In this document: positions 2,705 through 63,967 of the stretch, piece by piece
Position numbering within the stretch: position 1 is the first letter of the stretch
Layout: each line of letters starts with the position of its first letter
DNA from: an archaeon
GTDB lineage: Archaea > Iainarchaeota > Iainarchaeia > Iainarchaeales > 1-14-0-10-31-34
Direction: 5' to 3'
Length of the DNA: 64,000 nucleotides
Assembly (NCBI GenBank): GCA_043815885.1
Contig: JBDRIL010000029.1
Coordinates: 3,249 to 67,248 of the forward strand
Translations under genes and position numbers: made by a program
The notes under the pieces: generated by a model
The model's database searches: none
What the model saw: only the letters and a program-made list of their open reading frames with translations
Told to the model about the DNA's origin: nothing

Positions 2705-3168
2705 TTTTAAGAAAAGCAAGAAAAAGCGATGCAAAAGGAATTGCAGAAGTAATGATTGAATTCTATAATATTTCTTCTATTAAGGAAGGAGTGAATGCAT
2801 TCAGGGAAGAAACATGTAGGGGGCATAATTTTATTGTAGCGATTGAAGGAAAAAAAGTGGTTGGATTTACTTCCTGGCTGGCGCATGGTTTGGCTAAACA
2901 CGGTCTGGCTGAATTGGACAGGATTGCTGTATTGGAGGAACTGAGAGGAAAAGGAACTGGAAAAAAACTATTCAATTTTCTGGAGAAGGAAGCAAAGGAA
3001 TACTACAAAAAAAGAAATTCAAGATTAAGAAAATTATTCATTTTAACGCATGCCTCAAATACAAAAGCTCAGGCATTTTATTCCTCGCTTGGATTAAAGC
3101 ATGAAACAACATTAAAGAATCATTATTATGCAGGGGAAGATGAATTCGTTTTCAGTAAATTTTTTTAA
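2701..3168 (+). CDS. GNAT-family N-acetyltransferase
   Basis: 155 aa; acetyl-CoA binding motif region RGKGTGKKLF; start overlaps glmS stop (ATGA). Confidence 0.7.
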   Translation: MILRKARKSDAKGIAEVMIEFYNISSIKEGVNAFREETCRGHNFIVAIEGKKVVGFTSWLAHGLAKHGLAELDRIAVLEELRGKGTGKKLFNFLEKEAKEYYKKRNSRLRKLFILTHASNTKAQAFYSSLGLKHETTLKNHYYAGEDEFVFSKFF

Positions 3169-3182
3169 TGAAGGTTTTTTGA

Positions 3183-4880: not shown

Positions 4881-4882
4881 AA

Positions 4883-6100
4883 TTATTTTTTTGGCTTCAT
4901 TACGATTAAAGTGTAGTTTTTTTCTTTCAGGAAGTTCTTTGCTGTTTCTTGTACTTGTTTTGAGGTAACGGAATGAATTCTTTTAAGGAAGTCTTTTGTG
5001 TACTTTACCTTGTTTCTCTTGTAATTAATCAGGTTTAAGGCTAAATCAAAATTGTTTTCTTCTGTGAGAAGCAGTTTTCCTTCAATGTATTGTTTTGCTT
5101 TATTCAATTCTTCTTTGGTTAGTTTTTTTTCTCTTAAGGCCTTTATTTCTTTTTCAATTAATTCCTTTACTAAAGGAATCTTTTCTTTTCTTGCCCCAAC
5201 ATACACGGCAAAGTAACCGAAGTAATTTCCTGCCTCTAAATGTGATTGTACTGCATAAGCAAGACCTCTCTTCTCCCTTATCTCCTGCATCAGCCTGCTA
5301 CTTAACCCACCCCCTAAATGAGCATTAATTACTTCCATTATATAGTGTTCTTTTTTAGTGGAAGGAGTGACCTGAAAACCATAAATTAAATGCGCCTGGC
5401 TTAATTCCCTTTTAATTAATTTGTTTCTTTCAGTTATTTTTTCTTTCCTGAATTCCTTTACATCTCTTGGTTTCTTTTTTTTCGTGGAAAATGATTCCTC
5501 AATTTTTTTCTTTACTTTCAATGGATTAATGTTTCCTACAACTGAAACAATTATGTTTGAAGGAGTGTAAAATTCATTAAAGTAATCAATGATGTTCTTT
5601 CTGCTGATTCCTTTCACTGTTTTCTTTGTTCCAATAATGCTCTTCATTTTATTGTCCTTAAAGCAGAGCTGCTGGAATAAATCAAAGAGGTAATTCGGAA
5701 CATTGTCCTTTATCTGGCTTATCTCTCTTAGAACAATCTTTTTCTCTAATTTAAGGTTTTTTTCCTTGAACAGGGAATTATTCAGGCAGTCCTGCAATAC
5801 GTCCAGTCCTTTACCAAAGTGCTTGTCCTGGACTTCAACAAAGAAACAAGTCATTTCATTGGAGGTGAATGCATTAATCTTTCCTCCAATTTTGTCAATC
5901 TCTTCAGCCAGTTCTTTCTTGTTTCTTTTCTTGGTTCCAGTGAAAGCCATGTGTTCAATTAAGTGAGCTATTCCTGAATGTTTTGTTTTCTCAAAAATTG
6001 AACCAAAATTAATTGAAATAAGGATTGCAACAGAATTACTGTCTTTTCTTTCCTTTACAAGCAGATTCAATCCATTACTCAAAACGAATTCTTTGATCAT
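4883..6100 (-). CDS. M16-family zinc metallopeptidase (insulinase-like)
   Basis: Inverted zinc-binding motif HLIEH (GIAHLIEHMAFTGT); two-domain M16 architecture; 405 aa. Confidence 0.8.
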   Translation of the reverse strand: MIKEFVLSNGLNLLVKERKDSNSVAILISINFGSIFEKTKHSGIAHLIEHMAFTGTKKRNKKELAEEIDKIGGKINAFTSNEMTCFFVEVQDKHFGKGLDVLQDCLNNSLFKEKNLKLEKKIVLREISQIKDNVPNYLFDLFQQLCFKDNKMKSIIGTKKTVKGISRKNIIDYFNEFYTPSNIIVSVVGNINPLKVKKKIEESFSTKKKKPRDVKEFRKEKITERNKLIKRELSQAHLIYGFQVTPSTKKEHYIMEVINAHLGGGLSSRLMQEIREKRGLAYAVQSHLEAGNYFGYFAVYVGARKEKIPLVKELIEKEIKALREKKLTKEELNKAKQYIEGKLLLTEENNFDLALNLINYKRNKVKYTKDFLKRIHSVTSKQVQETAKNFLKEKNYTLIVMKPKK

Positions 6101-6106
6101 AGAAAT

Positions 6107-9100
6107 TCACTGCACTACCTTGCCTGTAATTGCATCAATTCTCGCTTTTCTTTCCTTTCCATTTTCTTCCAGTGAAACGTAATAGAACGGCCTGTAAACC
6201 AGACTCACTTTTTTCACTATCACTGTCTTCCACATTTTCTGGAGAGACTTAATTACTTTTTCTTCAGAGAAATTAGCTTCGACTATTGAGACATTCTTTA
6301 ATTCAACCAAAGGCAATTCATTCAATGAATCAATCAATGAATGCCTTGAGTCAGGAGGAAGTTCTATCTCTCTGTTAAGGAAATAGGAGACCTTTCCCTC
6401 AGAACTAACTCTATCAACCAAACCCTTTTCAGTTAAATTGCCTAGAACTTTTTTTATTCTTGTTTCAGAGTAATTCTCTTCCTCCAGTTTTTCCTCCATT
6501 CCTTTCCTTTTAATTAAGCCAGCAAATACCTCTAACTGCTCTTCATCCAATTCCATTACCTTATTGAAGCCTCTTGATTCAATGAATTCATCATTCTTTA
6601 CGTGAATGAATTCCCCTGTAATGGCATTAATGAAACACGTAGTTGCAATGAATTCCTTGCTTTTGTTGAAGTCATTGAATGAAATCTTATAGACTGGCTC
6701 AAAAATAAGTTGAAGTTGCTTTACCTGCTCTTCCTTTCCAACCAACCCAAACCTTTTCCTTTTCCTTACCTTATTAACGATTTTCTTTGCTTCCTCTTCC
6801 TTTAATCTTAATGGAAATGAAAGAATGCTTTCCCTCTCTACCTTCTTTTCTTCCTGCTCTTTTATTCTTTCCTCTGCTTTTTCCTGTGCTTCCTTTATTA
6901 CTTCCTCTTTTTCCTTTAATTTTTCTGCAAGAACGACTCTGTCTGGTTCAATTACTGCCTTTCTTTCCTCCAATAAATCCAGTACAGAGGAAAGCATTGC
7001 CTTTGCCTTGTACTTGCTGTTCAATGAATTAATCAATTGATTGATTTTATCCATTCCTATTTCTCCATCCCTTCCTAATTCCCTGAACGCAATTTCCATT
7101 GCAAGGTTTTCCACCTGTTCCTTGCTCAGGCTTTTAACCAAAGAAATGGTTTCTGCATCCCTTCCCTCGTGCTGCGACATTCTTGGGCGGATACTCATCA
7201 CAAACGCTCTGCTTGTTTCCTCTCTCCTGTCACCAGTGAGAGCATAACCTATTGGAAGGCTTCTAATGAAATTGCTTTTCTTGTATTGGTGGGGAATGAT
7301 TGTAGGAATTCTCTTGTAAATAGCCTTTATGTCGTCATCAAAAACCAGTTTATGAGTCAAAAGAATATCCAATTGAGACAACACCCTTGTATCAATTGCT
7401 GATGGCTGCTGTGTAGCAAAAACTATACTGCAACCAGGCCTTCTTCCCTGCTTAACATACTCCACCAACGCATTTGTGGCAGGAGTATTTACATTTCCTG
7501 AAGGAATTAAGGTGTGGGCTTCATCAATAAACATCCAGGTAGGAGGAATATCTGTTTCAAGCAATGCATTCATTGAAGTAGCCTTCATTTTATTCGCTGA
7601 TTCTCTTCTAGTGGAAAGCTTTCTCGCTGAAAGAATTCTCCTTGCAAGAATTCCAATAACCAATGCAGTAACATTTGCTTCAAGAAAACTTGTATCCAAT
7701 ACAGTCAACTGGTTTTCTCTGGAGAGTTCCCCCAAAGGAGTTCCCTTTTCATCAAAGATCCCCCAGGACTTCGCTGCCTCAAACCTGCTGACTAACGCCC
7801 TAATGGAATCCTGTTTGTAGCCTCTTTCCCTGCTATTCAATTCTTCATCTGTCTCCAGACAGTTTATCATGCCATCCAGAGAAAAACCCTGCTTGTTTGC
7901 CTTAACGTATTTTCCTTCAATTGTCTTGTATCCATGCTCTACTTTTTTAATTACCTTATCCAAAAGCAAGCCGCTTGGACCAAATCTCTCCATTCCAAAA
8001 GTCAAACACCAGTCCTCTGAGGTAAGCAGTGAAGGCTGAATTGAAAAGGTTGCATCATAAGTGTTTTTTGGAGTTTCATTCTTCATTCCTGCTGGAATGA
8101 ATACCTTAAGGTTATCAAGGCCTTGAGGTTCTAACCCCCACTCAATCAATGCACTTAATTCCTTTTCTTCCTTGTTTGCATACTTCATGCTCCAGAACAC
8201 TCCAATAGGATCAATTACTACTATTCCAACATTGCTGTTTTTCAGTGCCAGTTCCTCTGCAATCACTCCAAGAACGTATGAATTATGAACAATTATATCG
8301 TTTGCAACAAAATTATAGTATTCTGGAACAGAAATATCATATACATCTTCTCCAGGAATTTCTTTTAACTCAGTTACCTCATCCCAAAAAATATCTGATT
8401 CTGCTATCATCTGTACTCCTTTATTCCCTTCAATCTGAGCCATTCTCAGTAACTTTTTTCTGGAAGGCGCGTAAGTTAAGGAACTATGGACGTAGTTTGG
8501 ATTATAACCCATTGCTCTCGAAGCAGCCTTACAATTTTTTGGTCTATAAATGCCCCAGATTTCTTTCGGAATAGTGTCTACATTTGGATTTCTTGAAACC
8601 TCAAGCATGTCTTTTATTGCATTTTCCTGTTTTAGTTCTTTTACCCCAAAAAAACCGATTTCCTGAATGAATCTGATTACACTTTCAGATGAAATAACTA
8701 ATTCAAAGGAATTGAATTTTTTCTCGTTACATTTGACTTTTTTGAACCTAAGCCTAGAGAGTATCCCAAATCTAATCAAAAGATTCTGCACTTGCCTTAT
8801 CATTTTATCTGAAGAACTAGAATAAGAAACCTGCCAATTATTTTTTCTTCTACTTATCGGATGAATACTGCCGTCACAACTGAAAAGCCTGTTCAGGAAT
8901 AATGCCAGCTGTTCTTTAGGAAGTTTTAATACTTCTTCTGGAATAACTTTCTCCTTTGTTAGCTTTCCATATAATCCAATGCTTTCAAACCATTTTGCCA
9001 GAGAACTCTTTTGCGCGACAATAAACCCTTTGCTTGTAAATTGCCCTTTTTTGTTTCTAACAACATTTGTTAAATCAATTGGTTTCTTTTTTTGTGCAAC

Positions 9101-10288
9101 TCTATAGCATCCGATTTTACTATGCACTTCTATTCTTAGGTTTTCATCAAATTCCTTTATGCTTTGGGAGAAATCTTCAAGAATTTTTTTGTCTTCGTTA
9201 CTGAATAAAACAAATGCATTTCTTAGATGCCCTTCCGCAATAAAGTAAGCCAATAACTTAATATCACACTCTCTCATCCTAGTGTTGCCAAATACATTAA
9301 GTGCCCTTGGCACTGCTATCCTGTCTTTTGCTTTTAGTTCTTGGGTTTGCATCCATCCATTAATTGTTAGGAGAGGATGTTCGGGAGTCAATTTTATTTC
9401 CCTTCCACTCCTTAACCGCAAATAAAGCAATTTGCTCACTTTTCTCTTATAAAATCCTTCTTTTTTCAATGGAACTACTTTTAGTTCATGGTTTAATCCA
9501 AGAACCCGTTTATCATTGTTTTCTAGTTCCTTTATAGGAATAACCGAGCCATCTTCCAAGGTTATCAATGAATCGCCAGTAAGGCATTTTCCACTCCCAC
9601 GAGCACCGCAAACAAACACTACATGAGGATTCAGTCCGTCAAGAAAAACCTTTTTTTTATTGTATCCCTCTTCCTCCAGCCTTCCAATCAATAATGCTGC
9701 ATCAGATCCATAATTAAGGAAAACTGATTTCTTTCTTCCAATGAATACAGATTCATTTTTCTCGTCCTCCAGAAATTGCAGAGGCATTGAATTTGCTGGA
9801 ACTTCTTCCACAAATTTTTCTTCTGGTTCAGGAGCGCCTTCCATTTCACTTATTGTTTCCCCGCGCTCTTCCTTTTCCTCTTCAACTTCTTCCTCTATTT
9901 CCTTTGTTGCAGACTTCAAAGCCTTTCTCAGAATGAGTTTCTTTAATTCATTTTTTGGAGGCAATTCCTTCTTCAATTCCTCCTCTGGTTCTTCAATGTT
10001 TTCCTCTTCTGCTTCCTCGTTTTCTTCCAATTCAATTTCCTTTTCAATTGACTTGTTTTCTTTTTTTTCCTTTGCGCCAATGCTTTTCTCAAAAGCTTCA
10101 GCTTTTGCGCCACTGCTTTTTTCAAAAGCGGTGTTTTCTTTTTCTGGCTTTATTGTCTTAATGATTTCCTCTACATGTTTTTCCTTTTTCCCGTCAAATA
10201 CCTCGTCAAATATATCCACGTCCTCCTTTACCCTGGATTTCTGTACTCTCTCTTCTGGAGAGAGTTCCCTTGGTTTTTCTTCATTCAT
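6107..10288 (-). CDS. HerA/FtsK-superfamily (DUF87-like) P-loop ATPase with an acidic low-complexity N-terminus and an intein inside Walker A
   Basis: Extein Walker A is GARGSGK|S (reconstituted across the intein). Walker B is MFIDEAH. HerA-like motif TQQPSAIDTRVLSQLDILLTHKL. The N-terminal ~220 aa are an E/K-rich linker. Confidence 0.75.
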   Translation of the reverse strand: MNEEKPRELSPEERVQKSRVKEDVDIFDEVFDGKKEKHVEEIIKTIKPEKENTAFEKSSGAKAEAFEKSIGAKEKKENKSIEKEIELEENEEAEEENIEEPEEELKKELPPKNELKKLILRKALKSATKEIEEEVEEEKEERGETISEMEGAPEPEEKFVEEVPANSMPLQFLEDEKNESVFIGRKKSVFLNYGSDAALLIGRLEEEGYNKKKVFLDGLNPHVVFVCGARGSGKCLTGDSLITLEDGSVIPIKELENNDKRVLGLNHELKVVPLKKEGFYKRKVSKLLYLRLRSGREIKLTPEHPLLTINGWMQTQELKAKDRIAVPRALNVFGNTRMRECDIKLLAYFIAEGHLRNAFVLFSNEDKKILEDFSQSIKEFDENLRIEVHSKIGCYRVAQKKKPIDLTNVVRNKKGQFTSKGFIVAQKSSLAKWFESIGLYGKLTKEKVIPEEVLKLPKEQLALFLNRLFSCDGSIHPISRRKNNWQVSYSSSSDKMIRQVQNLLIRFGILSRLRFKKVKCNEKKFNSFELVISSESVIRFIQEIGFFGVKELKQENAIKDMLEVSRNPNVDTIPKEIWGIYRPKNCKAASRAMGYNPNYVHSSLTYAPSRKKLLRMAQIEGNKGVQMIAESDIFWDEVTELKEIPGEDVYDISVPEYYNFVANDIIVHNSYVLGVIAEELALKNSNVGIVVIDPIGVFWSMKYANKEEKELSALIEWGLEPQGLDNLKVFIPAGMKNETPKNTYDATFSIQPSLLTSEDWCLTFGMERFGPSGLLLDKVIKKVEHGYKTIEGKYVKANKQGFSLDGMINCLETDEELNSRERGYKQDSIRALVSRFEAAKSWGIFDEKGTPLGELSRENQLTVLDTSFLEANVTALVIGILARRILSARKLSTRRESANKMKATSMNALLETDIPPTWMFIDEAHTLIPSGNVNTPATNALVEYVKQGRRPGCSIVFATQQPSAIDTRVLSQLDILLTHKLVFDDDIKAIYKRIPTIIPHQYKKSNFIRSLPIGYALTGDRREETSRAFVMSIRPRMSQHEGRDAETISLVKSLSKEQVENLAMEIAFRELGRDGEIGMDKINQLINSLNSKYKAKAMLSSVLDLLEERKAVIEPDRVVLAEKLKEKEEVIKEAQEKAEERIKEQEEKKVERESILSFPLRLKEEEAKKIVNKVRKRKRFGLVGKEEQVKQLQLIFEPVYKISFNDFNKSKEFIATTCFINAITGEFIHVKNDEFIESRGFNKVMELDEEQLEVFAGLIKRKGMEEKLEEENYSETRIKKVLGNLTEKGLVDRVSSEGKVSYFLNREIELPPDSRHSLIDSLNELPLVELKNVSIVEANFSEEKVIKSLQKMWKTVIVKKVSLVYRPFYYVSLEENGKERKARIDAITGKVVQ
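8282..9586 (-). mobile_element. intein (435 aa) with LAGLIDADG homing-endonuclease domain, inserted in the P-loop of the HerA-like ATPase
   Basis: Begins CLTGDSLITLEDG right after GARGSGK. LAGLIDADG blocks LLAYFIAEGH and LALFLNRLFSCDGS. Ends NDIIVHN, followed by Ser+1. Coordinates were derived by codon counting. Confidence 0.85.
10103..10138. repeat. 36-nt imperfect-hairpin repeat (TTTTGCGCCACTGCTTTTTTCAAAAGCGGTGTYTTC), in-frame within the HerA-like gene; a degenerate tandem copy lies at ~10071-10102
   Basis: Near-identical copies lie in the P0 gene at 27369-27404 and 27534-27570. On the coding (minus) strand it encodes TAFEKSSGAK. Confidence 0.8.
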
Positions 10289-20565: not shown

Positions 20566-20706
20566 TTAATATTTCCCATTATAAAAAAGCCCGTTTTAGT
20601 TATTAATTCTTTCGATTTTATAATAATTTTTAAACACAAGGCAGTTTTTTGCGAAAGAAATAAAAACCTAAATTGCCTTTTAAGTACTAATAAAGGAAAT
20701 GATAGT

Positions 20707-31203: not shown

Positions 31204-34200
31204 ATGAAGTGTCCTTATTGCGGGAGTGAAGAAAGCAAGGTTGTGGATAAGAGGGAAACAGATGATTTGGTTAGCAATAGAAGGAGGAGAGAGTGCCTTA
31301 AGTGCAGTAAAAGGTTCACTACATATGAAAGAATTGAAAGGATTGAATTGAATGTAGTGAAAAAGGATGGAAGAAGGGAAGCATTCAATAGGGAGAAACT
31401 GATTACTGGGATAACTAAAGCATGCGAGAAAAGGCCTGTTGGAAGGGAAAAAATTGAAGCAATAGTGAATGAAATTGAATCAGAACTGCTTCAAAGAAAG
31501 GAGACAGAAATTCCTTCAAGAGAGATTGGAGAACTGGTAATGCAGAGACTGAAGAAACTGGATGAGGTTGCATTCATTAGGTTTGCTTCAGTGTACAAGA
31601 CTTTTACTGATGTAGCTGAATTTGAGAGAGAGCTGAAAAATTTAAAGGTTGTAGAGGAAAAGTCCTCAGGAGATTCTACAGATATATTGCTGCAAGTGGC
31701 TACTCATGCAGCTGGATCCACAATTGGGTGGAGAAGGAGCAGGATAACTGAAGCATTAATGAAGGAAGCTGATTTAAGCAAGGACAATGCAGAAGAAATC
31801 GCCCAGTCAGTTGAAAAAAAGGTTTTTGCTTCAGGAATAAAGACTATTTCTGTTTCACTGATAAGGGAATTAGTGGATAATGAATTGTTTGTTAGGGGAT
31901 ATGAGAAGAAGCTGGAGAAACAGGGATTAATTGGAATGCCTTCCTATAATTTGAATCAATTAATCTATAACATGAGTCTGGAGAACAGCAATGTTCGTTC
32001 AAACAGCCCTGAAGCAATTAATTTAGCGATTGCAGAGAATGCATTAAAGCAGTATGCTTTAAGAGAGATATTTTCGAAAGAAGTATCCAATGCTCACTTA
32101 AAGGGAGCACTGCATTTGCATGACTTGGGTTATCCTATCCGCGTGTATTGTTCAGCGCATTCGCTTGAATTCATTAAAAAATATGGTTTAAGGCTGATCA
32201 ATCTTTCAACTGCATCTACCCCGGCAAAACACGCCCATACTTTAACTGGGCACTTGAATACATTTCTTGCCTCAATGCAGGCATACTATGCTGGAGCATT
32301 AGGAATAAGTTTTGTGAACGTATTCTATGCCCCTTACTTTGTCGGAGCCGACTACAAGGAAATGAGACAGCAAGCACAATACCTTATTTTTTCGTGTTCA
32401 CAGAATGCATTCTCTAGAGGCGGACAATCACTTGTTCCTGAGGAAACAATCTGGGTAAAGGAAGGAGAGAAATTAAAGCAAGCAGGGATAGGGGAATTGG
32501 TTGATGAATTTATTGAATTGGATGAGAGAAAGGAAGAATTAATTGACGGGACAGAGATAAGCAGGAACAACTTCAAGGGAATTGAAGCAATTTCCTTTGA
32601 CGAGGAAGGAAAGATTAGCTGCAAGAAGATAAGTGCTTTTGCAAGGATTCCATTCAAGGGAAAAATCTATTCAATTACCACGAATAAAGGAGAAGTGAAG
32701 GGAGTTACTGGAAGCCATTCAGTGTTTGTATGGAATGGAAGGAAATTTGAAGCAAAAAAGGCAGAAGAGTTGAGGAGAAATGATTACATTGTAACTGCTT
32801 TAAAGGCAAAAGGATTAGTGGGAGAAAGGAATGAACTGGATTTAATTGAATTTTATTTGAACAGGAAGGAAGCAGAAAACGAGGTAAGGGTCTATGATAC
32901 AGAGGAAAGATTCAAGAAGGCATTAATGGAGAGATACGGAAGAAGTTTCTATAAGGAATTTGAAAAAGATACTGGAGTTAAAGCTGAATGCGTTAGGAGC
33001 AATTGGTTGAGATACAAAAAAATTCCGTTAAAGTATTACTTTGAGTTTGTTGGAAACCCCGAAGAAGAAAAACTGATTTACAAGGGAGACAGCCAGACAG
33101 TGTTTCCAGCAAGAAGCAAGGTAACTAAAAGTCTAGTGAAATTGCTTGGATATTATGTGAGTGAAGGACACAATAGTCTGAGAAGCAGAAGCTTTATTGC
33201 AGTAAGCAATAAGGAAGAAAAATTCATTGAGAGCGTGAAGGAATGCCTGAATGAATTGAGTTATCATTACATAGTGAATGAAAATAAAAGGAATGGAGTG
33301 AAAACAGTTGTAATTCAAGGCATTCTTGCAAAAATCATTAGTGATTTAGGGGAAGAGGAAAATGGAGTGAAGAAGATTCCATTCATTATTTATAATGCAT
33401 CAAAGGAATTGCAGAAAGAATTCCTGAATGCATTCCATGAAGGAGATGGATTAAAGAGAAGGAACAGTTATGCAATAGCAAATACCTCTGAAAATGTAGT
33501 GAATGGAATCTCGCTTCTTATGGCAATGAATGAAAAAGACTTCCATTTATTCAAGAGAACTTATGCGAATGAAAAATGGAAGCCTTGCTATGAATTAAGG
33601 GAATCATTAATGGATAACAGGGTAATAGACCACAAAATAAGCAGGGAATTAATTGGAAGAAAAGGGTTTAGAAAGGAATTAAAGAATTTGAGTGCTGACA
33701 TTGAAAGCAAAGGAGGAACAAAAACTCAACAAATTCAGTTGCTTCAAATGTTAATGGAAGCAGAGGTTGGGTTTGCAAGAATAAAGGAAATCAATACCTG
33801 TGATTATGAGGGATTTGTTTATGATGTAAGTGTTCCGGGAAATGAATCATTTTTAGGAGGCACTGGATTAATCTTCTTCCATAACACTCTATTTATCGAT
33901 TTTAATATTCATTTAGGGATTCCTGAATTTTTGAAAAAGGTTCCGGCAATCGGTCCAGGAGGAAAGTATACTGGAAAGACTTATGAAGAGTATGAAAAGG
34001 AAGCTCAATTGTTTGCTAAGGCTTTAATGGATGTATGGAGAGAAGGAGACGGAGATGGAAAGCCTTTTCCTTTCCCTAAACTGGATCTGCACGTTAATCA
34101 GGAAAGCTTTGACGATCCAAGACAGTTTGAGTTATTGAAGTATGCTTGCTTGATTTCTTCAGAGAATGGAGCTCCTTACTTTGCATTTGACAGGGATGCA

Positions 34201-35085
34201 GTGAATTTATCCATGTGCTGCAGGTTAAGGACAAAGTTAACTGATACTTATGTTTTAGAGCATCCTGAAAGCATTAGGTATTGTGGTTTTCAGAATGTTA
34301 CAATTAATTTGCCTCAGGCTGCTTACAGGGGAGGAAAAGGAAATATAGAGAAGTGCATTGAGGAAGTAAGGAATACAATGGATTTGGCAATGAAGGCTCA
34401 TTTAGAGAAAAAGGAATTCATTTCCACTTTAATGAAGGAAAACGGTCCTTTATGGCAGGTGGGAAAAGTCTCTCCTGATGGAATTCCTTACCTGGACTTA
34501 GATAAAGCTACTTATATTATTGGATTGATTGGATTGAATGAATGCGTTAAGCACTTAATTGGAAAGGAACTGCATGAATCAGATGAAGCATTCAAGCTGG
34601 GATTAAAGATAATTTCTGCAATGAATTTAAAGACAAAGGAACTGGAAAAAGAGACAGGGCTTAGAGTTGCATTAGAGGAAAGTCCGGCTGAATCAGCTTC
34701 ATTGAGGCTGGCGAGAGTTGATTTAAAGGAGTTTCCTGAAAGCAAGGAATATGTGAGAGGAAACAAAGAAACAAGGGAAGTGTATTACACTAATTCAATC
34801 CATCTCACTCCTGATGCTCCAGTGAGCATTAGTGAGAGAATTGAAAAGCAGGGAAAGTTTAATCCATTAATTGAGTCAGGAGCAATAACCCATGTATTCT
34901 TAGGAGAACAAAGGCCAGAACCAGAGGCAATACTTAATTTAGTGAAAAAGACATGGGAGAACACTCAAAGCGACCAAATAGTTATCTCTCCTGAATTCAC
35001 TGTGTGTGATGACTGCAACAGAGTAAGCCCTGGCTATAAAAGAAAGAATTTAGGAGGTAATCGAAATGAAAGAAAAAGAAGTTGA
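31204..35085 (+). CDS. nrdD: NrdR-like repressor (Zn-ribbon + ATP-cone) fused to class III anaerobic ribonucleoside-triphosphate reductase NrdD, interrupted by an intein
   Basis: Residues 1-~148 look like full-length NrdR (MKCPYCGS...[46 protein letters not shown]), continuous with the NrdD body. The main frame ends [11 protein letters not shown]... with no glycyl-radical motif. Confidence 0.8.
32428..33885 (+). mobile_element. intein (486 aa) with LAGLIDADG homing endonuclease, in NrdD after ...FSRGGQ
   Basis: Block A is [13 protein letters not shown] (Ser1). Block B is [17 protein letters not shown] blocks [10 protein letters not shown] and [10 protein letters not shown]. Blocks F/G are [24 protein letters not shown], followed by Thr+1. 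Confidence 0.85.
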
Positions 35086-56519: not shown

Positions 56520-57236
56520 ATGCCTCCGTATTTTGCAGGACCATTTGCAGGACCAATTTTGGAATTGCTCATCATAGAGCTTGCTTATTTTATTGTAGTT
56601 GTAGGAATCTGTCTTACCATATATTTCAGGACTAAAGAGCTTTACAATATCTCCCAACATAAAGGAATCTTTTACTTCAGGAACATCTTCCTTTATTTTG
56701 CTTTTGCATACTTTTTCAGGCTGATTAATGCTTTATACATGCTCTCAAATGAAGCCCTTGACTTGGGATTCAGAAGAGGTTTTTTCCAGTTTGACCTCTT
56801 ATTTGTAAGTTATTTCAGCACAATGGCTATCCTATCGCTTTTAATGGCTGTAATGACTAGAAGCATTAAAAAAAATGTACAGACAGCCGATTACATACTT
56901 CATGGAATTGCATTGATTTCCTCTCTTTTTGTTTTTGTGACCAGATCATTTCCCCTGCTGTTTCTTGTACAGACAATTGTTTTAATAGGAGCAGTCATAA
57001 CTGTATTCATTACTCCCCAGAAAAAGAAACCCAAAAGACTCCTTTCACAAAACACTGTTACTTATGCTTTATTGGCTGTCTTCTGGGTTATTAACCTGCT
57101 TTCATTCAACAATAGATTCATCCCGCCTGATTTAAAGATTATTTTTTACCTTCTTTCAATTGCTGTTTTTGTCTCCATCTTTTTAAGGGTGCAAAAGAGG
57201 TTGCCTTCAAATGCAAAAAAAGAGAAACAGGCTTGA
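56520..57236 (+). CDS. polytopic membrane protein (hypothetical)
   Basis: 238 aa, six or more TM helices. Confidence 0.5.
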   Translation: MPPYFAGPFAGPILELLIIELAYFIVVVGICLTIYFRTKELYNISQHKGIFYFRNIFLYFAFAYFFRLINALYMLSNEALDLGFRRGFFQFDLLFVSYFSTMAILSLLMAVMTRSIKKNVQTADYILHGIALISSLFVFVTRSFPLLFLVQTIVLIGAVITVFITPQKKKPKRLLSQNTVTYALLAVFWVINLLSFNNRFIPPDLKIIFYLLSIAVFVSIFLRVQKRLPSNAKKEKQA

Positions 57237-57486
57237 CATAATATACTCAATACTAGGAATCATCCGGGAACACTATAATTCAATAAAGCCCACTCCCTTA
57301 CTGAGATACACCAATATTTCCTCCCAAAGCTTTTCCGAATACTACAAAGAACTAAAAGAAAAAGAATTCATAAGAGAAGAAACAGACAAAAAAGGAAGAA
57401 AATACATTTCCCTAACAGACAAAGGATTCAAATTCCTTGAAAAATACAGAAACCTCAAAGGATTCATAGAAGAATTCGATTTATGA
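57211..57486 (+). CDS. winged-helix transcriptional regulator (small archaeal wHTH)
   Basis: LDIIYSILGII...KPTPLLRYTNISSQSFSEYYKELKEKEFIRE...GRKYISLTDKGFKFLE. Confidence 0.6.
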   Translation: MQKKRNRLDIIYSILGIIREHYNSIKPTPLLRYTNISSQSFSEYYKELKEKEFIREETDKKGRKYISLTDKGFKFLEKYRNLKGFIEEFDL

Positions 57487-58876: not shown

Positions 58877-59042
58877 CCAAAAATGGGCTAACGGACACAG
58901 GCTTTACCATAACTTCATTAAAGAAAATTCAACAATCGGAATGACGCCTTCAGAGAAAGCAGGAATTGAATTAAACTTAAACAGAAATAAGTGGTTGAGT
59001 TTATTAGAACAAAGCTTAAACTCCACACATAAACAAGAATAA
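58877..59042 (+). pseudogene. fragment of IS6-like transposase (C-terminal ~50 codons), remnant second copy
   Basis: Translates as ANGHRLYHNFIKENSTIGMTPSEKAGIELNLNRNKWLSLLEQSLN. It is ~90% nt identical to the reverse complement of 60852-61010 and in the opposite orientation to the intact copy. Confidence 0.75.
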
Positions 59043-59084: not shown

Positions 59085-59588
59085 TTGTTAATGGAAGGTG
59101 ATAAATTAATGCCGGGAGGAAAAAGAACTGTAAAACGAAGCTCAGGATTATATAAACCCACTACCGTCAGAGGTGTAAAAGTAGGTAAACCAGAGAGCGG
59201 GACTCTTCATACATTCAGACCAAAGGAAATTTTGGAAAGAAAGAAATTTAACTATTTAGCGGATTTTCGTAAGCTTAAGGATTTTATTGTTCTTGGTAAA
59301 CGTCAACTGCCTCTTAAGACAGGTGAATTCGCATTCATAAACACTAATACAGGAAATTTTGTTGGAAAGGGAAGGAAAAATAAGTTTGAATTCTTGGCTA
59401 CCCATAAAGTTGGAAGGAAATGGGAAAGCTATGAAAAAATGCCAGAACCAAAAATAATTCCTATTTCCGAAATTAAAAGTGGATACTCTATTGCAATAGC
59501 AGGACGCAAAGAAAAACGAAAAACAACAACAAAAAGGGAAAAGAAATCGATAGAGCCAGAGCATGGTGGCGGAATGAGAAACTTTTAA
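59085..59588 (+). CDS. hypothetical basic protein (accessory region)
   Basis: 167 aa, K/R-rich, no family recognised. Confidence 0.35.
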   Translation: MLMEGDKLMPGGKRTVKRSSGLYKPTTVRGVKVGKPESGTLHTFRPKEILERKKFNYLADFRKLKDFIVLGKRQLPLKTGEFAFINTNTGNFVGKGRKNKFEFLATHKVGRKWESYEKMPEPKIIPISEIKSGYSIAIAGRKEKRKTTTKREKKSIEPEHGGGMRNF

Positions 59589-59635
59589 TTTTTTCACCTC
59601 CTTTCGATTTTTTTCTTTTAAAACTGACGAATACG

Positions 59636-59800
59636 ACAGGGTTTTTTGCCTGACGAATTTTCGACAGAGCCCTGAAAGCGGCATTGTCGTAAAGGGGGTT
59701 GATTTGATTGGAAAAAAGTAAAGTGTCGAATTCGGTTGGTATTGAAAGGAAAGGGGGTGAAAAAAACGAAAAAATTAATAAGGAGCTTTCCCTTTTAGAT
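59636..59800. repeat. conserved ~165-nt leader module (GAATACGACAGRGCCCTGAAAGCGGCATTGTCGTARRGGGGTTGATTT...GTCGAATTCGGTTGGTA.TGAAAG...CGAAAAAATTAATAAGGA), copy 1
   Basis: Copy 2 is at 63335-63490. Each copy precedes a divergent small TM peptide and may encode a shared N-terminal peptide SNSVG(I/N)ERKGGE(K)NEKINKE. Confidence 0.7.
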
Positions 59801-59968
59801 AAGGTTTTGGGGTTTGAGCTTATGAAAAAGGGAGCAGTTAATTTAATTGTAGTTTTTGTGCTACTTTATGTTTTCTTTGTGTATGTCATGAAGATAAACT
59901 TAGTTATTTCATATGTTGTGGCAATAGCAATCGCATTAATTTTAGCTTACTCGAATGATTGGCTATGA
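59708..59968 (+). CDS. small membrane protein (conserved leader region + divergent TM core), paralogue of 63384-63653
   Basis: TTG start in the track ORF; an alternative internal ATG gives a 48-aa TM peptide MKKGAVNLIVVFVLLYVFFVYVM... Confidence 0.45.
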   Translation: MEKSKVSNSVGIERKGGEKNEKINKELSLLDKVLGFELMKKGAVNLIVVFVLLYVFFVYVMKINLVISYVVAIAIALILAYSNDWL

Positions 59969-60231
59969 CTATTAAAGAATTAGAAAAAAAAGTTGCAGAG
60001 CTGGAAATCAAGGTAGGTTTTGATAACCGATTGAAAGGGATAGAAAATAAACTTTTAGATTTGGACAAAAAATTTAGTGAACATAAAAAAAGTTGGATGG
60101 AAAAAGTCACATTAAAAAGTTTAGTAGATTGGACTTCAAAAAATGTAAGGGATTTATCAATCCAAATAATAATAACAATAATAATAGCAATAATAGTTTT
60201 CTTGATATCTATTTCTTCAATAAAAATTTGA
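59959..60231 (+). CDS. small coiled-coil protein with C-terminal TM helix
   Basis: 90 aa; overlaps the previous ORF's stop. Confidence 0.4.
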   Translation: MAMTIKELEKKVAELEIKVGFDNRLKGIENKLLDLDKKFSEHKKSWMEKVTLKSLVDWTSKNVRDLSIQIIITIIIAIIVFLISISSIKI

Positions 60232-60244
60232 AAAAAAACTGATT

Positions 60245-60832
60245 TTATTTTACTGATTGTTCCAACAAGTATTCAAGTAAACCTATCTTCTTGAATATCT
60301 CATGAATCACATCAACGTATTCGTGTCGCACTTGTTTCTGGATTTCCACTTGTTTGTTAAATCTTTCTCCTTTCATAAAAGGGTTTTTCATTAATTTATG
60401 CTCATTATAAGTTGTATAACTTGCAATAATGTCAGCAAGTTTTTTTCCGTTTTCTTCTATTTTCCTAATTTCCCCGATAATTAATCTCTTTTTTTCAAAA
60501 TTATTTTTTCCTTTAATGCCTCTTAAAAAATAAGGTATTTGCTGTTTGTCTTTCAGTGCCTTAATGGTGCTTAAATCCTTTAAAACTTTATTAGGTTTAG
60601 ATAAATGTCCCCACACAAATTCAATCATTATTCTGTATCCTTCTTTGTTTAAGAATATTGGATTTTTTTTATCGTGGTATTTGATTGAAAGCCCTCTGTA
60701 TTTTCTTTCAAAACTTCTGCAAGTTTTAATATTTTTTGGAAGCATGAATTGTTTTTGTAGAAGGGCTTTTTTGTGTTTCTGAAAGCTTTGATATGAACGT
60801 AATCTTTTCAATCTTTGTTTTAATTTTTTCAT
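60245..60832 (-). CDS. hypothetical basic protein
   Basis: 195 aa; abuts the transposase gene. Confidence 0.35.
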   Translation of the reverse strand: MKKLKQRLKRLRSYQSFQKHKKALLQKQFMLPKNIKTCRSFERKYRGLSIKYHDKKNPIFLNKEGYRIMIEFVWGHLSKPNKVLKDLSTIKALKDKQQIPYFLRGIKGKNNFEKKRLIIGEIRKIEENGKKLADIIASYTTYNEHKLMKNPFMKGERFNKQVEIQKQVRHEYVDVIHEIFKKIGLLEYLLEQSVK

Positions 60833-60851
60833 TTAATTAATTATTGTTGTT

Positions 60852-61973
60852 TTATTGATTTAAGCTTTTCTCTAATAGGCTTAACCACTTATTTCTTTCA
60901 AGCTTTAAATCAATCCCTGCTTTCTCTGAAGGCGTCATTCCGATTGTTGAATTTCTTTTAATGAAGTTATGGTATAATCTGTGTCCGTTAGCCCATTCTT
61001 GTGTTGTCTTGTTTGACTTGAATCCTCTTCGCACTTTATCGAATTCCCTGAATTCATTATGATACCTTTCTACAAGATTGTTGTTTATTAAGTGCCTTCT
61101 TCCAACAATACTGATATGCTTTGTTCTCTTTGACTTGGTTCTGAATTCTCTCTTGATTGCTTTTGGATAGCTTCCAAGAGAATCAGTAATAATGAATTTA
61201 GGTTCTTCTGCTTTAGGATTGTTTTCTTTTACTTCAATGAAATGCTCTTGAGCATCCTTAATTTTTCTTCCTTCTGTGATTGTTGAAGCTAAGACAAATC
61301 TTGTTTTATGGTCTATTGAATTCCAAGCATAAACCCATTTTCCTTTGGATTTAACTAATTGTTCATCAGTATGAATTTGTCCGCTTAATTCAGGAGTGAA
61401 TTTCTTAGTGTATTCATCCATTTTTGCAGTGAACTTATTAATCCATCTTCGGATTGTATCAAAATGAATTCTGATGTTATAGAATTGGTAAACAGTATCA
61501 GAAATATCTCTCAATGATAAGCCTTTGAAGTATAAATCCATTGTTAAAGTAATGATTTTTGGGTTTGCTTTAACTCTTTTCAATGGCTCTAAAACAAATA
61601 GTTTTTTACAGGCTCTGCATTGCCATCTTTGTTTTATTCCTGCACTTGTCTTTCTTTTCCCGTATTTAACTATTAGGTCTGAATAACAGTGAGGGCATTC
61701 CTGTTTATTTGCATTGAATTCTTCCTCTATATTGAAGTCATCTAATTCTGCCTTGTTTTTCATTTTTAAGTAAAATTTGATTGAGTGAATGTGTTTGCAT
61801 TCAGTTTTCCTGTATTTGAAGTCAGGGCATTCACAACTCCATAGGTTAGCGTTCTGCACTTTATATTTTCCATTTCCAGATTGAGAAGGAATAATCCATT
61901 CATTCTCATTAACCATTAAAGGAGTATCGCCTTTAGACAAAATCGCTAAACCCCTAATTTCTCTTTCATTCAT
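60852..61973 (-). CDS. IS6-family-like DDE transposase with N-terminal SWIM-type zinc finger
   Basis: CECPDFKYRKTECKHIHS (CxCxnCxH) zinc finger. DDE region resembles IS6/IS26 (WVYAWNSIDHKTRF..., FIITDSLGSYPKAI, RRHLINNNLVERYHNEFRE, NGHRLYHNFIKRNSTIG). Confidence 0.75.
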   Translation of the reverse strand: MNEREIRGLAILSKGDTPLMVNENEWIIPSQSGNGKYKVQNANLWSCECPDFKYRKTECKHIHSIKFYLKMKNKAELDDFNIEEEFNANKQECPHCYSDLIVKYGKRKTSAGIKQRWQCRACKKLFVLEPLKRVKANPKIITLTMDLYFKGLSLRDISDTVYQFYNIRIHFDTIRRWINKFTAKMDEYTKKFTPELSGQIHTDEQLVKSKGKWVYAWNSIDHKTRFVLASTITEGRKIKDAQEHFIEVKENNPKAEEPKFIITDSLGSYPKAIKREFRTKSKRTKHISIVGRRHLINNNLVERYHNEFREFDKVRRGFKSNKTTQEWANGHRLYHNFIKRNSTIGMTPSEKAGIDLKLERNKWLSLLEKSLNQ

Positions 61974-62034
61974 AATAAATCACCTTATACCAATTTCGGT
62001 ATATACAATATAGGGCATAACCTTTTTAAAGGTT

Positions 62035-62053
62035 TCGGTATATTGGTATATTT
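62035..62053. repeat. 19-nt direct repeat TTTCGGTATATTGGTATAT (second exact copy 62199-62217; partial copy 61996-62006)
   Basis: Brackets the RHH ORF, immediately upstream of the transposase start. Confidence 0.7.
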
Positions 62054-62054
62054 T

Positions 62055-62189
62055 ATGTCTGAAAAAGCTAAAACAAGTTTGACATTAGATAAAGACTTAT
62101 GGAAGAAATTCAAAGTAAAGTGTGTTCAAGGGGAAAAGTCATATACTGCTGTAATCGAAGGACTTATCAAAGAGTGGCTTAAAAAATAG
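62055..62189 (+). CDS. 44-aa ribbon-helix-helix (CopG/Arc-like) protein
   Basis: Read by hand: MSEKAKTSLTLDKDLWKKFKVKCVQGEKSYTAVIEGLIKEWLKK. Matches the RHH pattern (beta strand SLTLDKDLWKKF, then two helices). Flanked by 19-nt direct repeats. Confidence 0.5.
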   Translation: MSEKAKTSLTLDKDLWKKFKVKCVQGEKSYTAVIEGLIKEWLKK

Positions 62190-62249
62190 CTAAATTTCGG
62201 TATATTGGTATATGTTTATTTATAAAGGTTTTTATCAATAGATTATGTT

Positions 62250-62519
62250 ATGGCAAAAGAAATTATTTTTGATGAATTAAAAAAAGAAGAAGCAATTCTA
62301 CTTCTCAAGGCATTTGATTATAAATTGGATAAAGAAGGACATATTTTAAGACCTTCTGGAAGCAAAATACCTTCAGAATTACACCCTAATAAATATCTTA
62401 CTTTAAAGGATTCAGCGTTGGTTCCTGCTGGTTCAATGGACGTTATTGATGCTAATCCAATATCTATTTCAAAATTTATTAGAGAACGGACGGTAGAAAA
62501 AGATGTCTGTTCCCGTTGA
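62250..62519 (+). CDS. hypothetical protein
   Basis: 89 aa; overlaps the next ORF. Confidence 0.35.
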   Translation: MAKEIIFDELKKEEAILLLKAFDYKLDKEGHILRPSGSKIPSELHPNKYLTLKDSALVPAGSMDVIDANPISISKFIRERTVEKDVCSR

Positions 62520-63267
62520 GGAGCTAATAAAACAAGTTTCAAGTTTGCCTTTGAAAGAGGCACTAGCCTTATTAGTAGTAAATAAGGTTTTGGAGTTTTC
62601 TGGGAAAGGGTATTCTGCTTTAAAGCAAATCATAATTGATAAATATAATGAAGGAAAATATGCGTTTGTTCCAAATAAAGAAGAAGCACAGAAATTAACG
62701 GAATTTGAGACAAGTTCTACTTACAAACAAATAAAGATTCTTGTTCCATCTTATCGCTATATTGATATTATTAGAACAGGCTTGTTAATTGACTTTTACC
62801 ATTGCAGAAATTTAAATGGAGATAAAGAAAGAGTTTTTAAAATTAAACAAAGTATAGCAAACACGCCAAATGGCAAAACCTTATTAAAAATTACGAACCT
62901 TCCTTCAACCCCTTTTTTTAGTATCATTCTTAAGTATTTATATGATTTAAAAATTAATAATAATTATTCAGAGAAACAACTTGAAGAAACATTTGATGAA
63001 ACCATTTTACAATGGAAAGAATCCTCAAAATTCGTTGAAAATAAACATTCTGTGCAATCTATTATTAATTTTTGCACAAAGCAAATAGAATCAGATAAAT
63101 CACCAATATTTCTTCTGGCAATGCGACAAGCTGTAACAAAGTTGAACAAAGCTATTGAGACATTAGAAAGAAAAAACTTTTTTAAAGCCAACAATTATAT
63201 AAAAAGAATTATAATTTTAGAAGAAGGGAATCATCCAAGAGTAGAGGTTATGCTGATTAAAGAGTAA
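62503..63267 (+). CDS. hypothetical protein
   Basis: 254 aa; no family recognised. Confidence 0.4.
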   Translation: MSVPVEELIKQVSSLPLKEALALLVVNKVLEFSGKGYSALKQIIIDKYNEGKYAFVPNKEEAQKLTEFETSSTYKQIKILVPSYRYIDIIRTGLLIDFYHCRNLNGDKERVFKIKQSIANTPNGKTLLKITNLPSTPFFSIILKYLYDLKINNNYSEKQLEETFDETILQWKESSKFVENKHSVQSIINFCTKQIESDKSPIFLLAMRQAVTKLNKAIETLERKNFFKANNYIKRIIILEEGNHPRVEVMLIKE

Positions 63268-63334
63268 CAAACAGCCCCCGAAGTAAGCGTGAATAACATA
63301 TGCTAAAATCAACCGCATCCGACTTAATTTTCAT

Positions 63335-63490
63335 CAACCGAGAATACGACAAAGCCCTGAAAGCGGCATTGTCGTAGGAGGGGTTGATTTTGAGTGAAAT
63401 TAATGGTTTGTCGAATTCGGTTGGTAATGAAAGAAAAGGAGGTGAAAACGAAAAAATTAATAAGGAAAACGCCCTTATTAATCGTGTTAG
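63335..63490. repeat. conserved leader module, copy 2
   Basis: Matches 59636-59800 at ~85% identity. Confidence 0.7.
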
Positions 63491-63653
63491 GGAGTTTAAT
63501 ATGGGCTGGTTTAATGTCCCCAAAAGTAAGTGGAGAACCATTGGAGTAGTTTTTTTTGTTATTGGAGCTTTTCTAATATTTTTTACTGATTACAGACAAT
63601 ACGGAGTAATAATAGCTATTTTAGGGGCAATCATTAATTTAGTTAATGGATGA
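63384..63653 (+). CDS. small membrane protein, paralogue of 59708-59968
   Basis: Shares the N-terminal LSNSVGNERKGGENEKINKE; a divergent TM core begins at the internal ATG (MGWFNVPKSKWRTIGVVFFVIGAFLIFF...). Confidence 0.45.
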   Translation: MILSEINGLSNSVGNERKGGENEKINKENALINRVREFNMGWFNVPKSKWRTIGVVFFVIGAFLIFFTDYRQYGVIIAILGAIINLVNG

Positions 63654-63967
63654 TTGATATGACTGAACAGCTACCACAACAAATGTTTGAAGCTGGTAAG
63701 TTAAAACACAAAAGACTTATTTCAACAATGCAATTATTTATTGGTTTTTTAACTGCAATAGAAATTGGGGTGTTAACTTTGTTTCTACAAAAAGAGGAAT
63801 TATTTTTATCAAAAGCAAATTTATTTTATTTAATATATTCGATTTTTTTAGCAATACTGCTTAGTTTTATAGGTCTTAGCTCGATTTTAGTAAATTTAGA
63901 AAAAACACTTGGGTGGAAACCAGAATTGGAAGAAAAAACTAAGAAAAAGAAATGGACTTGGTTCTAA
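63650..63967 (+). CDS. small membrane protein (two TM helices)
   Basis: 105 aa; overlaps the previous ORF's stop. Confidence 0.4.
   Translation: MIDMTEQLPQQMFEAGKLKHKRLISTMQLFIGFLTAIEIGVLTLFLQKEELFLSKANLFYLIYSIFLAILLSFIGLSSILVNLEKTLGWKPELEEKTKKKKWTWF

Follow-up and report, generated by a model that had tools for sequence, protein, structure and literature searches.

The closest described counterparts of the locus reported here are the hok/mok system of plasmid R1, the lambda S and class II holins, the type I toxins, the double-glycine bacteriocins and other ribosomally synthesized and post-translationally modified peptides (RiPPs), and, for its second gene, the DUF2721 membrane proteins. The locus lies in the last 5 kb of a 64-kb stretch of archaeal DNA (contig JBDRIL010000029.1, positions 3,249 to 67,248; hereafter 'the window', from whose first letter coordinates are counted unless another locus is named). 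It comprises two modules, copy 1 and copy 2, in each of which a conserved leader runs into a gene for a small membrane protein, open reading frame (ORF) A, that is overlapped by a second membrane-protein gene, ORF B (B' in copy 1). Homologues of ORF A were found at three other loci, here called L047, L048 and L049. We favour, with moderate confidence, the view that the two modules are diverged paralogous A-B membrane-protein operons with a conserved control region.

In sequence layout L047 and L049 recall hok/mok: a short upstream frame, its peptide not conserved, passes over the putative ribosome-binding site for a small hydrophobic protein and terminates at the start of that protein or beyond it, and the mobile-element context is a further likeness; the family differs in that it is not known to have an antisense RNA, its protein has two transmembrane helices and 78-111 residues, a second membrane gene follows, the frames of the window copies are fused, and the host is an archaeon. 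The lambda S and class II holins resemble ORF A as small proteins of two transmembrane helices whose translation could begin at either of two sites, both preceded by a separate ribosome-binding site, with a stem-loop upstream of the first. In class II holins, however, the charged segment is a C-terminal tail, whereas that of ORF A is N-terminal and the protein ends right after its second helix; moreover, no endolysin, muralytic or lysis gene is found among the neighbours, and the window copies have no start codon after the second ribosome-binding site. Type I toxins, which the initial annotation had listed among its possibilities and which stay a conceivable one, are hydrophobic, under ~60 aa, usually of one transmembrane helix and monocistronic, whereas ORF A is larger (86-87 aa in the window), has two helices and is the first gene of a two-gene operon. 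Double-glycine leaders have a consensus of hydrophobic residues at -4, -7 and -12 before the GG. The pair of window copies recalls such precursors in its conserved, GG-containing N-terminus followed by a more variable hydrophobic part, but it lacks the leader consensus, the maturation and export genes and the hypervariability among orthologues, and its GG appears to be a by-product of a Shine-Dalgarno motif. From a miniature inverted-repeat transposable element (MITE), an insertion sequence (IS) end or an attachment (att) repeat the leader differs in having only two copies in the window and in being partly coding and conserved with the gene.

Two copies of a leader and a small family of membrane proteins

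As the initial annotation had proposed, the leader is present twice, and we find two and only two copies in the window. Positions 59662-59784 of copy 1 and 63347-63466 of copy 2 are ~83% identical (BLASTN, 83.5% over 127 nt, E 5e-32), MAFFT and global alignment agree with BLASTN on this pairing, and a whole-window repeat search returned the leader as a two-copy family (D12). Within the window a 30-mer, CGACANAGCCCTGAAAGCGGCATTGTCGTA, occurs only at 59662 and 63347 and a 25-mer, TGTCGAATTCGGTTGGTANTGAAAG, only at 59724 and 63409, each with 0 matches in 100 shuffles. The other shared features pointed out at the outset are equally present: the inverted repeat CGACA...TGTCG is found in both copies, the peptide SNSVG(I/N)ERKGGE(K)NEKINKE lies in frame in both first ORFs (BLASTP 22/37, E 4e-11), and in both modules a second membrane ORF begins in an ATGA overlap with the first. 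Global alignment extends the homology beyond what was first described, from ~59611/63328 through to the ATGs at 59824/63501, and finds it again at the junction of the first and second ORFs (ATGATTG..TATGACT; AATGATTGGCTATGACT versus GGATGATTGATATGACT).

NCBI annotates both ORF A genes in their long forms, with TTG starts (proteins MFH1545069.1 and MFH1545076.1). An exhaustive HMMER profile search of 1.84 billion representatives recovered the two window proteins and three others only (P0063, 78 aa, E 1e-8; P0064, 111 aa, E 4e-5; P0065, 82 aa, E 2e-4). A profile search across 5.8 billion sequences yielded no additional relative, copy 2 used as the sole query in a word-indexed protein search retrieved nothing but itself, the family alignment gave no confirmed relative among viral contigs, and no Pfam, NCBIfam, PHROG or PADLOC model matched the family. 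Copy 2 and the three outside homologues, which we call canonical, share (4/4) the signature LIxR[VI][RK]xFNMGWFxxPKxxWRxxG, two hydrophobic helices and a C-terminal GAIINxxNG. In L049 a 92-aa ORF with two transmembrane helices (3025-3303, minus strand) stands across an IS6-family element from the operon; it begins MSNRSFEENERDIKENQLIRK, matches copy 2 by BLASTP at E 0.004, and its DNA agrees with the copy 2 block GAAAACGAAAAAATTAATAAGGAAAAC..CTTATTA at 30/37 positions, a score reached by 0/500 shuffles. It has an ATG at the codon that is GTG in copy 1 (59723) and TTG in copy 2 (63408), has no ORF B partner, and is followed by the IS6 element; it is probably a diverged ORF A paralogue and a fourth outside relative. 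The ORF A family is real yet extremely small, with five or six members.

The initial annotation had described the downstream parts of the two ORFs as unrelated peptides of ~50 aa with a single transmembrane helix. Their divergence stands: from FNMGW onward copy 2 is 44-56% identical to the three outside homologues and 19% identical to copy 1. The single helix and the length do not, as each protein has two hydrophobic helices, which in the AlphaFold2 (AF2) model of copy 2 span residues 45-65 and 69-86 at a predicted local distance difference test score (pLDDT) of ~93. Nor can the core be called hypervariable, since copy 2 keeps FNMGWF, PK..WR and GAIIN..NG in common with the outside homologues; for copy 2 there are further copies of the gene whose downstream regions are conserved as well, an outcome that the initial annotation had named as refuting its reading. 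Translation from the internal ATGs, also raised as a possibility, is made unlikely by the family alignment: the ATG of copy 2 (63501) is the conserved internal methionine of FNMGWF, and the codons before this methionine vary synonymously or conservatively (CGC/CGT/AAA/AAG, ATT/GTT/ATA, TTT/TTC), which argues that the region 5' of this ATG is translated. A class III (pilin-type) signal peptide in copy 1 (KKGA) was considered and rejected by eye; copy 2 and the homologues have no corresponding feature.

Copy 1 retains the length of the family, the two-helix layout, an ..ILAYSND end (like ALIHLLND of P0065) and the junction sequence. We read it as a strongly diverged paralogue and not as a foreign cassette, because homology can still be recognised where ORF A meets ORF B.

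ORF B' of copy 1 has no similarity to ORF B of copy 2. The latter matches its counterpart in L049 (BLASTP, 34% over 100 aa, E 2e-11, to residues 1-91 of the L049 protein) and that in L048 (E 2e-8), and since these homologous genes overlap ORF A in copy 2, L048 and L049 (by ATGA or by 8 nt), they define a conserved two-gene operon of which copy 2 is a standard member. ORF B of L049 exceeds the Pfam threshold for DUF2721 (PF11026; 36.8 vs 28.3 bits), whereas ORF B of copy 2 gave no Pfam hit of its own and is tied to DUF2721 only by way of this homologue; at 105 aa it is also shorter, mostly spanning the part N-terminal to the DUF2721 match. In PADLOC, ORF B matched PycTM at only 17.6 bits.

A probable ribosome-binding motif in shifting reading frames

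A 14-nt motif, AAAGGRGGTGAAAA, with the pattern AAAGG(A/G)GGTGAAAA, is present at 5/5 loci (both window copies, L047, L048 and L049). In the frame of the window ORFs and of the upstream ORFs of L047 and L049 it spells KGGE, and in that of the long L048 ORF, KEVK; in L047 and L049 it lies outside ORF A, the start codon of which comes after it (ATG 5 nt on in L047, GTG 6 nt on in L049). There are three GGAGGTG sites in the window, and Shine-Dalgarno motifs precede ~3/42 long host ORFs. Because such sites are so scarce, the motif is not background, and because it is kept whatever its frame, it points to a signal in the nucleic acid. The simplest reading, and the most likely, is that it is a strong Shine-Dalgarno sequence serving as a ribosome-binding site.

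Shine-Dalgarno sites do precede the IS6 transposase (61985), the 167-aa ORF to the left of module 1 (59096) and NrdD (31194), and the one at 59096 implies that the 167-aa ORF starts at ATG 59109 and not at TTG 59085. Sites of this kind suggest that translation initiation may differ between the island genes and most host genes. Right after the stop of the 167-aa ORF, at 59590-59605, lies TTTTTCACCTCCTTTC, which is complementary at 15/16 positions (94%) to 59749-59764, the second Shine-Dalgarno motif of leader 1, and stands 143 nt upstream of it; its minus strand supplies one of the three GGAGGTG sites, and leader 2 has no equivalent.

The upstream ORF of L047 (152/161-244) runs through the motif in the frame that gives KGGE, carries a GGTG of its own 6 nt ahead of its ATG, and stops 20 nt after the ATG of ORF A at 222. 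That of L049 (510-638) also crosses the motif in the KGGE frame and shares a GTGA overlap with the GTG of ORF A at 635; the sequence of the peptides encoded by the two upstream ORFs is not conserved. In both window copies and in L048 no start codon follows the motif, and the upstream frame is fused to ORF A. Directly after the motif, relative to L047, copy 1 is without 7 nt and copy 2 without 10 nt, and as both deletions are of the form 3n+1, the ATG is lost and the upstream frame is joined to ORF A. Where the L047 upstream ORF begins (ATG AGT), the aligned sequence of copy 2 is the TTG AGT that NCBI uses, and in both a purine-rich ribosome-binding site lies 6 nt upstream. While the frame relations are directly observed, translation of the upstream frame is something that we infer. 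In L047 the stretch from 78 to 244 forms a chain of three overlapping small ORFs, in which a 27-aa CxxC ORF (78-161) overlaps the upstream ORF (161-244) by TGATG and this in turn overlaps the start of ORF A (222).

The N-terminal peptide shared by the window copies would then be a composite of a former or alternative upstream ORF, a translated Shine-Dalgarno sequence (KGGE) and a genuine family helix (ENEKINKE..LI). The AF2 model of copy 2 fits such a composite, with residues 1-17 disordered and residues 15-37 helical, followed by the two transmembrane helices.

It is at this point that the original suggestion of a leader-peptide/core-peptide precursor, of the bacteriocin or RiPP kind and with a hypervariable core behind its conserved leader, becomes barely credible. 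The GG-containing peptide common to the two copies and the divergence of their hydrophobic C-terminal parts speak for it, and L049 carries three radical-SAM genes and an A24 (prepilin-type) peptidase at 3400-6883, 2.5-6 kb from the operon. These enzymes, however, lie beyond the IS6 element and are not kept near other members of the family. The core is conserved among copy 2 and its outside homologues and forms a confidently predicted two-helix transmembrane hairpin; the GG codons form part of a nucleotide motif that is retained in more than one frame, and they fall outside ORF A in L047 and L049; and the residues before the GG of copy 2 (R at -4, G at -7, V at -8) do not match the hydrophobic consensus. 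A processing peptidase or transporter nearby, which such a precursor had led one to look for, is not there: scans with Pfam, PHROG, PADLOC and NCBIfam found no peptidase, radical-SAM, cyclase or ABC transporter gene among the neighbours, and the 12 kb of L048 that were read hold no maturation or export genes.

Leader architecture and competing explanations

Table 1. Features of the two modules and the adjoining IS6-family sequences, in window coordinates.
Feature	Position	Strand	Remarks
Leader 1, upstream part	59611..59661	+	T-rich tract after stop of 167-aa ORF
Direct units CTGACGAAT(A/TTT)CGACAG, leader 1	59624-59639 and 59650-59667	+	Spacing equals that of ATCAACCG..CGAC units in copy 2
Palindrome/hairpin, leader 1: CGACAG AGCC CTGAAAGC GGCAT TGTCG	59662..59689	+	27/28 positions match copy 2
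First Shine-Dalgarno-like run GGGGG (59694-59698) and TTG start (59708)	59694..59710	+	Start of NCBI ABIE23_03210
Variable patch within conserved leader 1	59706..59723	+	Holds 12/19 mismatches; clustering, permutation p ~0.0015
Invariant block 2, TGTCGAATTCGGTTGGTA, leader 1	59724..59741	+	Codes SNSVG; inverted copy of upstream CAACCG..CGACA-type units
Second, putatively strong Shine-Dalgarno motif AAAGGGGGTGAAAA, leader 1	59750..59763	+	Read as KGGE; 14-mer pattern in 5/5 loci
ORF A, copy 1	59708..59968	+	86 aa, NCBI ABIE23_03210; hydrophilic N-terminal part, two hydrophobic helices; diverged paralogue
ORF B', copy 1	59965..60231	+	88 aa; coiled-coil-like N-terminus, one C-terminal transmembrane helix; ATGA overlap with ORF A
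Leader 2, upstream part	63305..63346	+	Two direct units ATCAACCG(N5-7)CGAC(A) either side of TTAATTTT tract
Palindrome/hairpin, leader 2	63347..63374	+	From pattern and inverted-repeat search
First Shine-Dalgarno GGAGGGG (63377-63383) and TTG start (63390)	63377..63392	+	Start of NCBI ABIE23_03245
Invariant block 2, copy 2	63409..63426	+	From pattern search
Second Shine-Dalgarno motif AAAGGAGGTGAAAA, leader 2	63435..63448	+	Read as KGGE
ORF A, copy 2	63390..63653	+	87 aa, NCBI ABIE23_03245; canonical member: LINRVREFNMGWF, two transmembrane helices, C-terminal GAIINLVNG
ORF B, copy 2	63650..63967	+	105 aa, two transmembrane helices; homologous to DUF2721-type ORF of L049 and to ORF B of L048
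IS6-family transposase	60852..61973	-	SWIM, zinc ribbon and DDE_Tnp_IS240; between the two modules
Inverted remnant, 3' end of second IS6 copy	58878..59042	+	Just left of module 1; 143 nt (58878-59020), 87% complementary

The most conserved block of the leader is a 28-nt palindrome just 5' of the first ribosome-binding site (Table 1). Around it stand four (A)TCAACCG-N5-7-CGACA units, two of them direct and upstream and two inverted, with equal spacing in the two copies; one inverted unit abuts the first ribosome-binding site and the other is invariant block 2, inside ORF A, a block resembling which is also found in L047 in another reading frame. In minimum-free-energy folds the upstream units pair with block 2, in copy 1 via G-U wobbles, and fold z-scores are -2.8 to -3.4 for copy 2, -0.4 to -0.8 for copy 1 and +1.4 for L047. 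The palindrome is a probable operator or 5' stem-loop, and the repeat units could act through RNA pairing or as protein-binding DNA sites. Rfam covariance models run on both strands of the region gave nothing at gathering score and chance-level matches only at E up to 10, none of them on the leader blocks; C/D-box and frameshift-site readings of the leader were rejected by eye, copy 2 and the homologues being without corresponding features.

Beyond the window, exact-block scans found no genuine match to the invariant leader blocks in viral, genome or metagenome collections: the viral contigs gave one high-GC chance match only, the genomes a rhizobial gene only, and two metagenome scans nothing or high-GC chance matches. 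A distant blastn search of phage and plasmid records with the leader found nothing, and a three-sequence leader profile run with nhmmer over all loci analysed revealed no further copy. A divergent intergenic region elsewhere in the window (between ORFs ending at 20565 and starting at 20707) has, at 20581-20618 on the minus strand, 79% identity over 38 nt to leader block 3 (AAAACGAAAAAATTAATAAGG...), probably reflecting no more than a common A-rich, promoter-like composition.

Taken together, we propose that ORF A would be small, with a cytoplasmic helix at its N-terminus and a hairpin of two helices in the membrane, that translation of ORF B, likewise a membrane protein (DUF2721-related in copy 2), would be coupled to it, and that their operon would reside in a low-GC island rich in mobile elements. 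The leader would be the expression region of the operon plus the 5' coding part of ORF A, arranged in the order of promoter-proximal units and palindrome, first ribosome-binding site with TTG, a poorly constrained stretch, AAAGGRGGTGAAAA, and the codons of an amphipathic helix (ENEKINKE..LI.RV..F). In L047 and L049 an upstream ORF running across the second Shine-Dalgarno sequence and ending at or after the start of ORF A would constitute a coupling layout, which in the window copies, and independently in L048, a 3n+1 indel may have turned into an N-terminal extension of ORF A. The control regions of the two copies would stay alike under selection for common regulation or translation control, and the membrane parts would drift. 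Of the possibilities first listed, polymorphic small membrane proteins of an integrated element comes closest to this picture, in that the evidence is of paralogous membrane-protein operons in an island with IS6, a ribbon-helix-helix (RHH) gene and low GC.

Several observations weigh against a control region kept for its function. If the window copies start at TTG, their second Shine-Dalgarno motif is left with no obvious job, and its retention there could come from protein constraint on KGGE or from recent origin. Single-sequence folds are significant only in copy 2 and L049 (z ~-3), RNAalifold on five leaders found no common structure (-1 kcal/mol), and a family of only five or six members gives no power to detect covariation; an operator or structural role for the palindrome is likewise one that we infer. 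Upstream of the coding block the likeness to L047 is moderate: the leader-only part of copy 1 agrees with it at 73% of 45 nt (E 0.006 for a 20-kb database), and at 71% of 76 nt (E 1.5e-5) with the second Shine-Dalgarno motif included. By eye, the noncoding region 5' of the second L049 paralogue had looked like the palindrome and first Shine-Dalgarno sequence, an impression that we dropped after a shuffle test (835/2000).

In an alternative that we judge unlikely, one of two distantly related operons of this genome received its 5' region from the other by gene conversion or ectopic recombination, or recombination there swapped the downstream cassettes; the likeness of the leaders would then stem from recombination history and not from selection. 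Such an event would account for the phylogenetic discordance between a leader that is closest within the genome (copies 1 and 2, 83%; copy 2 and L047, ~73-78%) and a body that is closest across genomes, it would suit a region where mobile elements abound and IS6 copies lie on either side of module 1, and the right edge of high identity, near 59785/63467, is fairly sharp. Identity within the leader is uneven, however: 12/19 mismatches are packed into 24 nt beginning at 59706, between runs of 24 and 18 nt without a mismatch (permutation p ~0.0015), and this clustering fits block-wise constraint better than a uniform gene-conversion tract. The second Shine-Dalgarno motif and the ENEK.I.KE..LI codons also recur in other organisms, and homology persists at the ORF A/ORF B junction.

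The upstream ORFs of L047 and L049, which cross a strong Shine-Dalgarno sequence and end at or after the main start, raise the question of whether ORF A is a membrane toxin or holin-like protein of a mobile element, its synthesis gated by the leader and ORF B modulating or neutralising it. Gating could follow the logic of mok/hok, with translation of the upstream frame opening a buried second Shine-Dalgarno sequence, or that of lambda S, with two starts giving long and short isoforms. The small protein with two transmembrane helices and its mobile-element context would suit this role, as would the pairing of the L049 Shine-Dalgarno sequence with the upstream CGCCCCCU (fold z -3.4) and the 94% complementary, anti-Shine-Dalgarno-like 16-nt sequence at 59590-59605 in copy 1. 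We nevertheless consider it quite unlikely. There is no conserved sequestering structure and no substantial Rfam or PADLOC match; with no lysis enzyme gene nearby and the charged part N-terminal, ORF A is unlike the holins, and it exceeds type I toxins in size and shares its transcript with a second gene. In the window the frames are fused, so that coupling of the mok/hok type cannot operate as such. A more elaborate proposal, to which we give the same low credence, would see in the operon a mobile-element-borne membrane effector (toxin- or holin-like, or an exclusion factor) gated by upstream-frame reading across a buried strong Shine-Dalgarno sequence, in the in-frame fusion seen in the window an evolutionary switch from coupled to fused (long-isoform) expression or back, and in the N-terminal helix a conserved handle onto which different two-helix hairpins may be grafted, as in copy 1 and in the probable L049 paralogue across the IS6 element.

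Nested inverted and direct units next to IS6 elements might finally be taken for a noncoding mobile or structural repeat (MITE, IS end, att site or generic promoter repeat) that stands before two small ORFs by chance. This is very improbable: there are two copies in 64 kb and none, for either invariant block, in the viral, genome and metagenome collections; the IS6 terminal repeats, as a possible source of the leader units, gave no match; and part of the repeat codes for protein and is homologous to the same gene position in other organisms.

Genomic surroundings and significance

The window is part of a 67.7-kb contig of an uncultured archaeon. Outside the island it carries archaeal housekeeping genes, including HerA, NrdD, a Rad50-like SMC-family ATPase and a nucleoside phosphorylase-type (Glycos_transf_3) protein, and past 60 kb the GC content drops from ~0.37 to 0.30. 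Besides the modules, the last 5 kb hold a 56B-like RHH gene and several ORFs without family match; a wHTH protein is encoded to the left of the modules, at 57211-57486. In L049 an IS6 transposase of the same architecture as that of the window (1626-2774, 42% identical) lies directly after the ORF A-B operon and, as in the window, between a canonical operon and a diverged ORF A-like gene; the recurrence of IS6 beside operons of the family may be chance or a real association. L048 is a 36.7-kb contig of dozens of small co-directional ORFs, with a PemK/MazF-like gene among its genes.

Within the island the RHH gene (62056-62189) is flanked by near-identical 19-nt boxes, TTTCGGTATATTGGTATAT, at 62031-62049 and 62192-62210, with a partial inverted copy at ~61988-62007; these are probably operator or promoter boxes for the RHH gene and the 89-aa and 254-aa genes that follow it. 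The latter two (62250-63267) resemble a widespread two-gene cassette of ~88 aa plus ~255 aa. The 254-aa protein belongs to a set of 61 homologous proteins (60 besides itself) from archaeal metagenome-assembled genomes, including Nanoarchaeota, Bathyarchaeia and Ranarchaeia, and has no Pfam domain; an ORF of ~83-88 aa precedes the homologue in L037 and L038, and none is called in L039. Its AF2 model (pLDDT 91.6) consists of a ten-helix N-domain and a C-terminal domain whose only consistent fold matches in the PDB are Alba, Sso10b and Rpp20/25 (E 3e-3 and up, template modelling score to target 0.5-0.7). The 254-aa gene was considered as a partner of the leader and set aside as a separate cassette, leader-like sequence being found downstream of it in 0/3 loci examined. 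For the 167-aa and 195-aa neighbours, neither viral contigs nor phage records yielded a relative, and there was no match to any family. Further from the modules, the HerA-type helicase (6107-10288) and NrdD (31204-35085) each contain an intein bearing a LAGLIDADG endonuclease domain, and NrdD also has an N-terminal NrdR-like zinc ribbon and an ATP-cone.

With the tempting bacteriocin/RiPP reading removed, the evidence leaves a family of small archaeal membrane proteins that is unannotated and very rare, with five or six members of ORF A among ~15 billion predicted proteins; its operons include a second membrane protein as partner and stand next to IS6 elements or amid densely packed small genes running in the same direction. 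We rate these as paralogous small membrane-protein operons of mobile elements with a common 5' region, a kind that is itself already known, and as the evidence stands they represent an ordinary diverged gene duplication with a conserved 5' region. Of wider interest is the 14-nt Shine-Dalgarno-type motif, which is independent of reading frame, occurs in a host that rarely uses such sites, and is always crossed by the upstream frame. If it does act as a translation gate, these operons would offer a compact test case for upstream-ORF control in DPANN-like archaea.

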